Positions 31,448 to 43,644 are shown, counted from the stretch's first letter. The stretch: 64,000 bases of DNA from Elusimicrobiota bacterium (GCA_016212795.1 JACRDT010000036.1:39273-103272), one strand, 5' to 3'. The notes: generated from the sequence alone by a model not told the origin. Numbers and translations: made by a program.

Positions 31448-32395
31448 CTAAAATCTGGCCCCGAGCGATATCTTGTGCACCTGCCCCAACTCCGCGAAAG
31501 GCGCAATCGAGTAGTCCAGGCCGTAGCCGTAGGCCCTCAGCCCCAGCCCTGTCGCGAACCCAGCCGCCCCCGAGAGCCTGGAAGAGGAGCCTCCGCCGTA
31601 GCCCGCCCTGAGCGCCAACCCTCTTGCCAGGGCGAACTCGCTGCCGAAGCTCGCCATGGTCTCCCCGGAGTACGGCCTGCGCTTCAAGTCCAACGCCAAG
31701 CCCAGGCCCATGGGCAGCCTCAAGCCCAGCCCCGCTGCCACGGTCAAAGGCAGGTCCTCGGTCACTCCGGAGTACTTCAGCCCCGGCCCCAGGTTCTGCA
31801 CCGCCAAGCCAAAGTATGGAGTCCCAAGCCTGCCCATGCTCAAGTCGTATTGCCCGCCCAGGTCGACGGCGAAGGTGTTCGCGGATGCCTCGGCGATGGA
31901 GCTGTGCACGTACTTGACGCCCATTCCCAGTCTTGCCCCGAACTGCACCTTGCGCGCCATGGAGACCTGCATGCTGAAGTCGGACGCACCGAACTTGCCC
32001 GCAGGCCTGCCCAGAGGGTCTCTCCCTTCGAGACTCCCCTGGCTCATGTAGGTCGCTGCCATGCCCATGACCCCGAACTTGGCTGGATAGGCAAACCCCG
32101 CGAAATCATGCCTTGTCTGGCTTGGCAGCTCGGTGTGAGTCATCCCGGCCTCTTTCTTCTCCGCCCGGCTCAAACCTGCCTGATTCCAGTACAGGGCGTC
32201 GGCGCCCTCGGCCATGGCCGTGTACGCTTCTCCCAGGCCGGAGGCGCGCGCTCCAGCTCCCAATTTAAGGAACGCCGCTGTCTCTGTCCCAAAGGCCCTT
32301 TCTGCGAGCATCCCGGATGCGAGCAATCCGGACAGGATAAACATTCCAGCGGTCCTGCGGCTCGGCCAGGTTTCTGGTTTCTTCATGACGCTCAC
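31448..32395 (-). CDS. PorV/PorQ-family (FadL-like) outer-membrane beta-barrel
   Basis: Signal peptide, AFLKLGAGARASGLGEAYTA..ADALYWNQAGL, C-terminal HKISLGARF; GTGA overlap with the giant gene (alternative ATG 32386). Confidence 0.8.
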   Translation of the reverse strand: MSVMKKPETWPSRRTAGMFILSGLLASGMLAERAFGTETAAFLKLGAGARASGLGEAYTAMAEGADALYWNQAGLSRAEKKEAGMTHTELPSQTRHDFAGFAYPAKFGVMGMAATYMSQGSLEGRDPLGRPAGKFGASDFSMQVSMARKVQFGARLGMGVKYVHSSIAEASANTFAVDLGGQYDLSMGRLGTPYFGLAVQNLGPGLKYSGVTEDLPLTVAAGLGLRLPMGLGLALDLKRRPYSGETMASFGSEFALARGLALRAGYGGGSSSRLSGAAGFATGLGLRAYGYGLDYSIAPFAELGQVHKISLGARF

Positions 32396-35300
32396 TTTAT
32401 GATAGCAAGCTTCTTGATGATTGTTATGTCCGACTGCCCTACCCTCTTGGCCGTGACGACGTAAGTGTAGACGCCAGAACCCACCCCTCCCGCGTCCCAG
32501 CGGTAGTCATAGGTGTATTGGTCGTCCTTGCCGTTGCCGTCGTCCATGACGCTCGGATAGCCGAACCCGGCCGCATGCACCTTCCGGCCCGATGAGTCGA
32601 ATATCTTCACCTCCACCGAATTGGCCCAGCCAACCTGCACCCTGATGGTCGGGCTCTCGCCCTTGCGAGCCGGGTTGGGGAAGGCGTAGACCTCCCTCAT
32701 CTCGAAGTCAGAGAGCGCCACGGCCTCGGGCAGCACGCCCGTCACCATGGCCTGGTACACCGAGAAATGGTTCGTTAGCGCCCTGACCCGGCCTTTGACT
32801 GGATCAACGTCTGTTTCAAGAGGCTCCCACTCTCCCCTGCCCTTGTTCCAGTAATGCAGCACCACGTCATCAGGGCCCTTGCCCGGAGGGATCATCCTCT
32901 GATCGAATGGAAGCTCCACGGTCACGAGATAGTTGAACCTCGTGCCCTCCGGGCCAAACTCTACAGGCTCGCCCGCCTTGGCGATGGGCTGGGCCTTGGC
33001 CGCTTTCTCCCGCTTGGACTCGTCATCAGCGTCCTTGGGCCTGGAGACCGAGATCACGACCTCCTCGTCCAACGCCGCGGGCGGCACATCCACGCTCGCC
33101 CGGCTTGGAGCCGCGACCTTGCCGCCCGTTTCGGTGGAAACGACAAGGGCGGCCTCGCCAAACCACGCGGGCGCAGCCGGCGCCGCGATGCTGCCGGGAG
33201 GATCGACGATGAAGTAGACCGGTTCGCTCGTCACCGTGCCGCCCAAGGCGTCGCGCTGCACCACCACGGCATAGAGCGCGTCGGGCAGCGTATCGGGCAC
33301 CAGCCCCCTGATCCTTGTGTCGTTCCATAGGCTCAGGGACGTGGTCGCCCCGCCTATCAGGACCCTGGTGGCAGTCCCCGCATACTGCCCGAACCCTGTC
33401 CCGGTCAGCTCGAATGGCGTGCCCTGGAGAGCGACCGCGGGCGTGATCGTCGAGATCACAGGCCTGACCACCTGGATAGAACCTTCATTCGACCTTACCA
33501 GCCCGCCGTCCGACCCCGCGCGCTCGACTACCACGGCGTATGTCCCAGCGCTCATGTATGGCAGCTTGCCCTTGATCGTCGCGTCGTTCCAGAGGCTTAG
33601 AGGAGCCGTCGTTCCGCCTATTAGCACCCTGGTATTCACGCCGTTGTATGGTCCGAATCCTGCTCCCGCAATGGTGAACCCATCGCCTATGGGCGCGCTC
33701 GCGGGCGTGACAGAGTAGATTTCAGGCCGCAGTACCTGGAAAGTGCCTGCATCGGATGTCGCAAGGCCGCCGTCAGAGCTTGCGCGTTCGACTCTCACGC
33801 TGTGGCTGCCTGTAGCCAGCCCTCCCGGCACCGCGCCCTTGATGGCCGTGTCGTTCCAAAGCGACAGCGGGGCGTTCAAACCGCCGATCTTGACCCTTGT
33901 ATTGGCGCCGTCGTAGGGGCCGAATCCCGAACCCGTGATCGTAAAAGGCATCCCTATGGGGCCCGAGGATGGCTCGACGCCAAGGGCCTCTGGACTGACA
34001 ACAGTGAAATCAAGGGCGGTGCTGGCGATGATTGTCCCTCCGCTCTCGCGTTGCAGCACCAGCGAGTGCGTCCCTGCCGCAAGATTGGGCGCCCTGCCCG
34101 TTATCTTCGAGTCATTCCAGAGGCTCAATGCCGCGGTAGTGCCGCCTATCAAGACTCTCGTGTTCGCCCCGTTATAGGACCCGAAGCTCGTCCCCGTGAT
34201 CGTAAACGGCGCGCCTATGGGGCCCGAGGACGGGGTCAGTGAAGCTATCTCAGGCACGGTCACCTGGAAATTACCCAACTGGACCTGCGCCAGTCCGCCG
34301 TCTGAAGCCGCGCGCTCGACTATTACCGGGGCAATCCCCGGACTCAGGCCGGGGATTGCCCCGGTGATTGTCGTGTCGTTCCACAAGCTTAGCGCCGCCG
34401 TCGTTGCGCCAATCAGCACCCTGGTGTAGGAGCCATTGTACGGCCCGAAGTTCCTGCCCGTGATCGTGAACGGCACGCCTATAGGCCCGGAAGACGGGCT
34501 TAGCGCAAGGGCCTCAAGCGCCAGCACCTCGAAGCTGAAGCCATTGGCCTGGACGGAACCGCCGTCTGAAGTCAGACGTTCCACCATTACCGGGACAATC
34601 CCCGGACTCAGGCCGGGGATTGTCCCGGAGATTGTCGTATCGCTCCAAAGGCTCAATGGCGCTGTGGTCCCGCCAATCAGCACCCTGGTATTGGCCCCGT
34701 TGTACGGCCCGAAGCCCGTCCCCGCGATGGTAAATGGGACGCCTATGGGCCCTGCCGTGGGGCTGATGCCCTCAGCTTGCGGCGCGCCGACCGTGAAGAG
34801 CGCGCTGTTGCTCCTGGCTACCCCTGTCCCGCTTTGACGCTCGACGAGAACGTCGTAGACCCCGGCATCCAAAGCAGGAACGGTTCCCTTGATCTGGGTG
34901 TCAGTCCAAAGGCTCAAGGCGGACGTGGTCCCGTTGAACAGCACGCGGGTATTGGCTCCGCCGTAGCTGTCGAAGTCCATGCCTGTGATTGTGAAAGGCG
35001 CTCCGATGGGGCCGGAGGAAGGCGAAATCGAAGCAAGGTAGAGCCCAGCCACATGGAAGAAAACAGGCGCTGTCTCGACCACCCCGCCGTCCGCGCTCTT
35101 TCGGCGCACCACGACAGGATAAGGTCCGGGCCCAAGAGTCCCGGGCACAGCCCCCTTGATGGTCGTGTCGTTCCAAAGGCTCAAGGCTGCCGTGGAGGTC
35201 CCAATCAGGACCTGCGTATTGGCGCCGTTGTAGGGGCCGAAGCTCGTGCCAATCAAAGTGAACACCACCCCTATGGGGCCCGAGGACGGCGAAATGGAAG

Positions 35301-43530: not shown

Positions 43531-43559
43531 ATTATCCCACGGCCAAGGGGGATTGTCAA
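43531..43559 (-). promoter_or_regulatory. Near-consensus sigma70 promoter for the island operon
   Basis: TTGACA-17 nt-GATAAT on the minus strand, about 220 nt upstream of ATG 43311. Confidence 0.75.
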
Positions 43560-43644
43560 GCGGTCCGCTCCGGTCTGCTCCGGTCGAAGCGTGCCGGGGC
43601 GCCTATGGGTCCAAAGACCCGGGGCGGCGGGGGCCCCAGGACCC

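Follow-up and report, generated by a model that had tools for sequence, protein, structure and literature searches.

A 12,836-bp genomic island of an Elusimicrobiota bacterium (GCA_016212795.1, JACRDT010000036.1:39273-103272; this whole stretch of 64,000 nucleotides is called the window, and positions are counted from its first letter) carries on its minus strand the genes of a lipoprotein (P0001), a giant protein of 2813 amino acids (P0002) and a barrel of the PorV/PorQ family (P0003). We consider it probable that the three proteins form a polymorphic fibre that is anchored at the cell surface, carries an envelope hydrolase and has a cognate inhibitor or immunity domain in the periplasm, and that this fibre is built on parts resembling type IX secretion system (T9SS) components and is aimed at the envelopes of neighbouring cells. 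This reading starts from the anatomy of the locus, its insertion as an island, the adjacency of cargo and barrel genes, the co-divergence of the barrel with the C-terminal domain (CTD) of its cargo and the co-variation of the enzymatic head with a partner domain; from these we infer binding, inhibition, the export route, anchoring and the target. The features of the cassette and its borders are:

31403..44238, no strand: genomic island of 12,836 bp, between the cinA stop codon and the rpsO promoter's -35 element.
31373..31401, minus strand: rpsO promoter TTGAAA-17-TATCAT, in the flank outside the island and just past the barrel stop codon, conserved in the syntenic loci L003 and L004.
31448-32395, minus strand: barrel gene P0003, 315 amino acids.
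32392-40833, minus strand: giant cargo gene P0002, 2813 amino acids.
32395..32682, minus strand: T9SS type-A-like CTD, residues 2718-2813 at the extreme end of the giant (TIGR04183; alignable with CTDs in the PorZ and M6i models).
33169..36072, minus strand: stalk of 11 IPT/TIG repeats, residues ~1588-2555 (Pfam TIG, E 3e-111, 11 stretches).
37159..38478, minus strand: four OmpL47/HYR-type Ig-like repeats, residues ~786-1225 (NF047446, 75.7 bits).
39538..40761, minus strand: variable head module of the giant, residues 25-432, containing Amidase_6 and 51% identical to the head of the related giant P0012.
40120-40752, minus strand: Amidase_6 (PF12671), residues 28-238 (Pfam 46.4 bits, cut-off 23.2).
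40837-43473, minus strand: lipoprotein gene P0001; the longest open reading frame (ORF) has 878 amino acids and the likely start is M55 at 43311.
40840..41748, minus strand: variable C-terminal HEAT-repeat tail of the lipoprotein (Pfam HEAT_2), the proposed cognate inhibitor or immunity domain.
41749..43311, minus strand: conserved N-module of the lipoprotein, mature residues 1 to ~521 (lipobox LAGC; 39-61% identity to six homologues).
43312..43530, minus strand: 5' leader of ~215 nucleotides ahead of the Shine-Dalgarno sequence (GGAAGGAG) and the lipoprotein ATG, read from the sequence.
43531..43559, minus strand: sigma-70-like cassette promoter TTGACA-17-GATAAT with TG, 11 of 12 consensus matches.

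ORF calling and translation find all three minus-strand genes intact, with a gap of 3 nucleotides between lipoprotein and giant and an overlap of 4 nucleotides between giant and barrel. Chance ORFs or a pseudogene were considered and rejected, as the three frames are intact, match known families and have conserved homologues. The GC content of the locus is 0.54-0.65 and that of its flanks 0.67-0.74; the GC content at third codon positions (GC3) is 0.56-0.80 in the locus and 0.84-0.95 in the flanks, with 0.95 for pnp. An earlier note on this DNA, made from the sequence alone, had described a low-GC minus-strand operon with its own promoter, genes that are 3 nucleotides apart or overlap, and an intact rpsO promoter beside it (31401-31373), and all of this agrees with our data, including the cassette promoter at 43559-43531. 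The note had also called the locus self-contained: this is probably not fully so, because a candidate for an SprA-like translocon lies elsewhere in the genome. An Rfam search of the 5' leader (43312..43530) matched no family on the minus strand.

Translated from M55, the lipoprotein starts with MKTCFLSILAVACLCLAGC, a signal peptide with an L-A-G-C lipobox, and the lipobox motif is also present in its homologue P0005. The mature protein has only six homologues among 5.8 billion proteins, and all six are followed by a giant ORF within 0-17 nucleotides downstream. The similarity of the six to P0001 always ends at residue ~519-528: the tail of P0001 is unrelated to the tails of all six, and beyond residue ~520 the tails of the homologues are also mutually unrelated, and the same holds for the heads with which the giants begin at the N-terminus. 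Family assignments of these heads are as follows:

Window: Amidase_6.
L085: Peptidase_M14, 102 bits.
L087 and L086: Peptidase_M23, 28.3 and 16.9 bits, borderline.
L082 and L084: Zn-phospholipase-C (PLC)-like; a profile with L092 matches PDB 8cqm_A, E 0.004.
L088: unassigned domain.

The family of the amidase head is rare, with 24 matches among 1.84 billion representative proteins. In the best of these the head forms the N-terminus of a giant protein, and one such giant, P0013, ends in the same type of CTD. The earlier note had read an Amidase_6-like domain with intact Cys and His, and this holds at 46.4 bits: the motifs are GDC82ANYVSQC and H202-S-N-H205 (HSNHS), and Cys82 and His202/His205 are unchanged in P0012 and also occur in P0016 and P0018. 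The head is thus a predicted Cys-His envelope hydrolase, with the activity predicted from the family match. The only other giant that the head search retrieved with its gene context is P0012 (locus L089, 3262 amino acids), which is 51% identical to the window giant over residues 25-432 and 42-49% identical over stalk and CTD. It is preceded, with an 11-nucleotide overlap, by a stand-alone HEAT protein of 288 amino acids with a Sec signal, and this protein is homologous to the tail of the window lipoprotein (29% identity over 208 amino acids, E 4e-16). The partner is therefore found both fused and stand-alone, indicating that the tail is a portable module. No relative of the HEAT tail turned up when proteins of lipoprotein size were searched; the relationship surfaced only via the orthologue of the head.

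When 12 cassettes were compared all-against-all, including five complete giants of relatives that were added to the set (L091-L095), the related head pairs (window-L089, L082-L084, L082-L092, L084-L092 and L087-L095) were exactly the related partner pairs. Head and partner fall into the same multi-member families: {window, L089}, {L082, L084, L092} and {L087, L095}. The probability of an overlap of five out of five among 66 possible pairs is ~1e-7 in a hypergeometric calculation by hand, which treats the pairs as independent although there are only three families. Partners are either the tail of the conserved lipoprotein or separate secreted proteins, and carry signal peptides or lipoboxes, as is expected for protection of the periplasm. 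Within the island GC3 is mosaic: it is 0.56 in the tail and 0.60 in the head, and 0.80 in the lipoprotein N-module, 0.77 in the remainder of the giant and 0.80 in the barrel, which agrees with an exchange of head and tail. Head and partner thus co-vary as a swappable cognate pair on a conserved scaffold; the sequences suggest that the partner binds and inhibits the head. The suggestion in the earlier note that the lipoprotein serves as protector or chaperone can be kept for the tail, which co-varies with the head in the 12 cassettes, and not for the whole protein, as only the tail is head-specific.

The conserved N-module matched nothing in a PDB sequence search with the lipoprotein. At 42060-42450 (minus strand) it carries NHYYDP and GHVLRLLTNLSIPKY, which resemble the zinc-ligand motifs of PLC with the ligands replaced. 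The idea that the N-module derives from the PLC-like heads as an inactivated copy was tested and gained no statistical support: the motif aligns by eye, and hhalign gave a probability of 5% and an E of 0.008, which is not significant.

The own genome also encodes, at C43:54582-55970, a secreted protein with 26% identity (E 3e-9) to the family of partners found in the M23 cassettes (L087, L095). It is possibly an orphan immunity gene, because the genome has no M23-headed giant.

Behind its head, the giant consists largely of repeats, in line with the Ig/IPT stalk of the earlier note. Four OmpL47-type Ig-like repeats, starting at residues 790, 899, 1006 and 1113, are followed by the 11 TIG repeats, which have a period of ~88 amino acids and are 38-51% identical to the giants of relatives. 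One motif, SLWN(D/E)T(T/K)I(S/K)G, is conserved in the IPT repeats and could be a glycosylation site.

The CTD of the giant has the motifs FPNP, VKIFD..G..V, W..G..GSGVY and KKLAIIK, which are common to 12 paralogues; the consensus of the 12 CTDs of the own genome is YPNP, v(K/R)IY...G..V, W(D/N)G.N..G..VasGvY and K.a.I(K/R). With TIGR04183 (cut-off 23) it scores 17.2 bits in hmmscan and 23.1 bits in a six-frame genome search, while paralogous CTDs of the same genome reach 25.6-32.7 bits. A profile was built from the own-genome CTDs, the one of the giant included, and run against PDB: it matches the CTD of PorZ (5m11_A 670-758, E 2e-11) and of PorU (6za2_A 1054-1144, E 5e-9), and more weakly the Ig domains of FlgD and, at E 3e-3, substrate CTDs of Flavobacterium johnsoniae. 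The T9SS-like CTD of the earlier note is thus supported by its motifs and by the PorZ and PorU matches, with TIGR04183 itself on the border. In the attachment complex of Porphyromonas gingivalis, PorZ and PorU are, among T9SS proteins, the two that are known to retain the CTD and to remain attached to PorQ and PorV.

The barrel protein has a Sec signal (...ERAFG|TE, read from the sequence) and scores 156 bits with the PorV/PorQ family model NF033709 (cut-off 90) and 29 bits with Pfam PorV PF19572 (cut-off 27). It is below the equivalog cut-offs of both PorV (NF033710, 64.5 versus 250) and PorQ (NF033711, 91.2 versus 220) and, by these profile scores, is a member of the PorV/PorQ family that is orthologous to neither PorV nor PorQ proper. 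An AlphaFold2 (AF2) model built on nine own-genome paralogues (predicted local distance difference test, pLDDT, 83.8; predicted TM-score, pTM, 0.79) predicts a small barrel of the FadL/PorV type that has a plug-like segment at its N-terminus. In Foldseek its best matches are the PorV chains 8gl6_F (E 5e-15, query TM-score, TMq, 0.76) and 6h3i_F (TMq 0.72), both from F. johnsoniae translocon complexes, and FadL reaches 0.59. Family score and structural matches therefore agree with the PorV/PorQ-like barrel that the earlier note had proposed. A search for related loci with P0003 alone returned only a PorV of Rubrivirga.

Cargo and barrel genes are paired well beyond the island. The own genome has ~14-16 PorV-family genes, and at least 10 of these lie directly downstream of an ORF of 1016-7342 amino acids with a CTD end, often with a 4-nucleotide overlap. 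On contig C44, two CTD cargos of 7342 and 2128 amino acids (C44:212300-235293 and C44:240492-247852) lie 5 kb apart, each with a 4-nucleotide overlap to its own PorV-like barrel gene, and further pairs are found on the contigs C42, C41, C12, C5 and C25. Each of the 25 genomes from the family and order has between 7 and 28 PorV-family matches. For 60 barrels, the best ones from outside the own genome, the 7 kb upstream were examined in 24 related genomes: 47 have a same-strand, CTD-ending ORF immediately upstream, and several of the others are at contig ends. Adjacency of CTD genes and barrels, which had been set beforehand as a test, is thus seen both in the own genome (~10 pairs) and in its relatives. 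Distances between barrels correlate with distances between CTDs (Mantel r 0.84 over 59 pairs; none of 2000 permutations reached this value), and therefore cargo and barrel are inherited and diversify as units. This co-divergence agrees with cognate recognition, without proving it. In Bacteroidota, a single PorV serves all type-A CTDs (PMC12618676).

The island is absent from the three syntenic loci that are closest (L003, L004, L005), where rpsO-pnp comes directly after cinA. DNA similarity to L003 ends at 44239 and restarts at 31402, and the two flanks are ~20 nucleotides apart in L003. The PNPase of the window is 80-84% identical to that of metagenome-assembled genomes of groundwater Elusimicrobia. 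None of 20 syntenic loci has a homologue of P0001, P0002 or P0003, and head, tail and lipoprotein N-module have no paralogue in the own 4.18-Mb genome. GC3 of the other cargo and barrel pairs of this genome is 0.94-0.96. The simplest reading is a horizontal arrival of the island, because it is absent from relatives, has no paralogues of these modules and has a GC3 below that of pnp and of the other cargo and barrel pairs. An integrase, a tRNA or direct repeats were not obvious at the island borders, where the junctions were read by eye and not exhaustively.

Two related cassettes have surroundings of their own. In the relative G021, a tRNA gene (L092:4550-4620) lies immediately upstream of a cassette with a PLC-like head (HEAT partner, giant of 3843 amino acids, barrel), with low-GC3 ORFs between tRNA gene and cassette, which suggests island integration there too. 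The groundwater metagenome contigs L082 and L083 belong to a more distant lineage (housekeeping proteins 47-63% identical); their homologous lipoprotein and giant cassette is compositionally foreign, with a GC3 of 0.65-0.69 versus 0.92 for pheT, and has an OmpR-type response regulator upstream.

The search for further T9SS components covered the own genome, which is ~90% complete. GldM/PorM had no match and GldL/PorL only noise of 16.3 bits; GldK/PorK had only generic FGE-sulfatase-domain matches of at most 82 bits (cut-off 350), and PorN was not searched for. PorU is absent: NF033707 matches only the CTD-like ends of cargo genes. A protein of 1840 amino acids (C33:77346-82868) has three collinear partial matches, all below the cut-off, to the SprA model TIGR04189, and such an SprA-like protein (~1850-2100 amino acids) is present as a single copy in 24 of the 25 relatives. 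It is the best candidate for the outer-membrane pore and, judged from these partial matches, a candidate for a reduced, motor-less type-IX-like translocon. Of the components that the earlier note had named (SprA and PorKLMN), a distant SprA-like protein is present, and PorK, PorL and PorM were not found. The T9SS papers that were consulted assign type IX secretion to Bacteroidota or to the Fibrobacterota-Chlorobiota-Bacteroidota (FCB) superphylum, and none of the papers searched connects PorV or T9SS with Elusimicrobia.

The earlier note had mentioned neither the insertion nor a fourth gene of the island, which lies behind a riboswitch and is divergent from the cassette promoter:

43645..43673, plus strand: divergent promoter-like site TTGAGC-17-TATCAT.
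43678..43747, plus strand: 2'-deoxyguanosine (2'-dG)-II purine riboswitch aptamer, RF03165, full length, 71.6 bits (gathering threshold 60), E 1e-18.
43812..44234, plus strand: receiver-only response regulator of ~140 amino acids (Response_reg, 82.4 bits), with Shine-Dalgarno sequence GGGAGG and ATG at 43812, convergent with cinA.

The aptamer is followed by a terminator-like stem (CCAGGGGAAG...CTTCCTCTGG and a T-run, to ~43788), the 5' arm of which overlaps the 3' strand of P1; aptamer and stem together have the predicted anatomy of an ON-switch. The class is found in 17 of the 25 genomes of the order, with up to 12 copies per genome (relatives G001-G023). The other four copies of the own genome (C27:52158, C31:105430, C33:262023 and C20:52286) precede secreted proteins or lipoproteins of unassigned function, not nucleotide-metabolism genes. 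None of 11 related cassettes has a 2'-dG-II riboswitch. The ligand of the class is a product of DNA breakdown (PMC6847200), and to tie the fibre to 2'-dG sensing is speculative.

In the mechanism that we propose, all three proteins would be exported by Sec, as their signal peptides and lipobox predict, and the HEAT tail of the lipoprotein would bind the head and keep it inactive in the periplasm of the producer. The CTD of the giant would be captured and then held by its private PorV-like barrel, in the way in which the CTDs of PorZ and PorU dock on PorQ and PorV, and the giant would cross the outer membrane, probably via the single-copy SprA-like protein. There is no PorL/M motor, PorK or PorU sortase, and therefore neither cleavage nor attachment to lipopolysaccharide (LPS) is expected: the CTD would stay uncleaved and the fibre would be anchored C-terminally on the barrel, with the enzyme at its distal tip. 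The most likely use is an attack on the envelopes of neighbouring cells: an exported head with an exported, co-varying partner is the pattern of effector-immunity pairs that act in the periplasm, and amidase, M23, M14 and PLC-like enzymes are their enzyme classes. The idea of the earlier note, a cargo with a private barrel that displays a cell-wall hydrolase, gains support from the CTD and adjacency results, with the hydrolase fold as a prediction.

Several points weigh against this mechanism. Motor (PorL/M) and PorK are absent and no energy source for export has been identified, and the SprA-like candidate scores only 68.7, 67.2 and 42.9 bits (cut-off 200) and is without a Pfam match. The TIGR04183 (Por_Secre_tail) score of the CTD is borderline, and at L089 no barrel gene starts in the 330 nucleotides between giant and contig end. 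The Amidase_6 family is, for its part, described only as putative amidases, neither the head nor the head alignment found a relative in PDB by sequence, and the AF2 model of the head, from an alignment of two sequences, failed (pLDDT 36), leaving the amidase fold unconfirmed. The co-variation is based on 12 cassettes and three multi-member families. Orphan partner genes were not found near related cassettes, and clear orphan-immunity arrays were not seen, with C43:54582-55970 as the one weak candidate. The mechanism also does not explain how a peptidoglycan hydrolase at the tip of a fibre would get to the cell wall of a diderm target.

The same machine may instead serve scavenging, with fibres that digest debris or the walls of prey and a partner that only shields the periplasm of the producer during export; killing and scavenging share the mechanism and the two purposes are not separable from sequence. 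All identified heads belong to families that degrade envelope polymers, a hydrolase in transit through the periplasm needs a specific inhibitor, so that co-variation is expected here too, orphan immunity arrays were not found and the island carries a riboswitch for a DNA breakdown product (PMC6847200). However, the frequent exchange of head and partner on a conserved scaffold, the compositional mosaicism and the horizontal arrival are the signature of an arms race, nutrient enzymes are usually released or kept near the surface rather than put on a stalk of 2800 amino acids, and there is one possible orphan partner homologue without a head. We regard scavenging as the most serious competitor, yet as clearly less probable than use as a weapon.

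We think it unlikely that the PorV-like barrel itself exports its neighbour, similar to two-partner secretion and independent of the SprA-like translocon. The presence of one barrel per cargo, the tight translational coupling and the co-divergence would all fit, as would the lack of an identifiable T9SS motor, ring or sortase and the sub-threshold score of the SprA-like protein. However, the model predicts a small FadL/PorV-type barrel with a plug-like segment, with PorV and FadL as best matches, and PorV in the structures 6h3i and 8gl6 is a carrier bound to the SprA translocon and not a protein channel; moreover, a single-copy SprA-like gene is found in 24 of 25 genomes with expansions of the barrel. 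Finally, a head that is no hydrolase, in a plain adhesin or S-layer-like fibre with the lipoprotein as structural or assembly partner and with co-variation reflecting co-assembly, is very improbable: the unconfirmed amidase fold, the dominance of Ig and TIG adhesin-type repeats and the lack of an assigned function for the conserved lipoprotein N-module speak for it, but the head exceeds the Amidase_6 cut-off by a wide margin and has the conserved Cys and His, sister heads match catalytic families (M14 102 bits, M23 28 bits, PLC E 0.004 versus PDB), and stand-alone partners are small secreted proteins and not fibre parts.

Starting from the weapon reading, a wider picture can be offered tentatively, as a possibility that we hold to be short of probable. 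Elusimicrobia may run contact-dependent antagonism from type-IX-like parts, with dozens of giant fibres that are held by an uncleaved CTD on private PorV-like barrels and pass a motor-less SprA-like pore; one subfamily of these would carry exchangeable N-terminal envelope-lytic toxins with periplasmic immunity domains ('inverted CDI', for contact-dependent inhibition) and, in this island, might be wired to 2'-deoxyguanosine from lysed cells via the riboswitch-controlled regulator.

Parts of this arrangement are known from other systems. Like PorZ-PorQ and PorU-PorV of the P. gingivalis attachment complex, the fibre has a type-A-like CTD that would be kept and docked on a barrel of the PorV/PorQ family, the retention being our proposal for the Elusimicrobia proteins. 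In contrast to that complex, there are ~10 or more cargo and barrel pairs per genome, with adjacent and co-diverging genes, and these are found in Elusimicrobiota, without PorL, PorM, PorK and PorU and with a barrel under the PorV and PorQ equivalog cut-offs. One private, linked barrel per cargo is also the arrangement of type-B CTD cargo with a PorP/SprF-like shuttle, such as SprB-SprF of F. johnsoniae, in which the SprF-type barrel determines both secretion and final surface localisation of the cargo (PMC12618676, PMC9143113); here, however, the CTD is type-A-like and the barrel is of the PorV/FadL type and not of the PorP/SprF type. A different phylum thus appears to use CTD and PorV parts, with one barrel per cargo and without the known motor, ring and sortase, which prompts one to ask what a minimal or ancestral unit for type-IX-like export and anchoring consists of.

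With the periplasm-acting pairs of the type VI secretion system (T6SS), namely Tae/Tai amidases and Tle/Tli lipases, the cassettes share the enzyme classes and the exported cognate inhibitors; they differ in that there is no T6SS and that the enzyme is part of a surface fibre of 2813 amino acids. The pairs of amidase and HEAT protein, of M23 and a beta-rich partner and of PLC-like enzyme and HEAT protein can be cloned, and might throw light on fighting or feeding among uncultured groundwater bacteria.

The closest parallel in gene logic is CdiB/CdiA/CdiI, with a barrel, a giant filament and a protective protein encoded by three genes, and, as in polymorphic toxins more generally, the variable enzymatic tip and its cognate partner are swapped together on a scaffold that is conserved, in a locus that probably arrived horizontally. 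The window locus does not have the classical polymorphic-toxin layout of a C-terminal toxin with an immunity gene downstream. Unlike in CDI, the variable domain is N-terminal and its partner is encoded upstream, periplasmic and often fused to a lipoprotein; the barrel is of the PorV type instead of Omp85/TpsB, and the heads are predicted to act on the envelope and are neither nucleases nor pore-formers. An N-terminal tip with an upstream, lipoprotein-fused partner would be a new layout for polymorphic effector-immunity systems.

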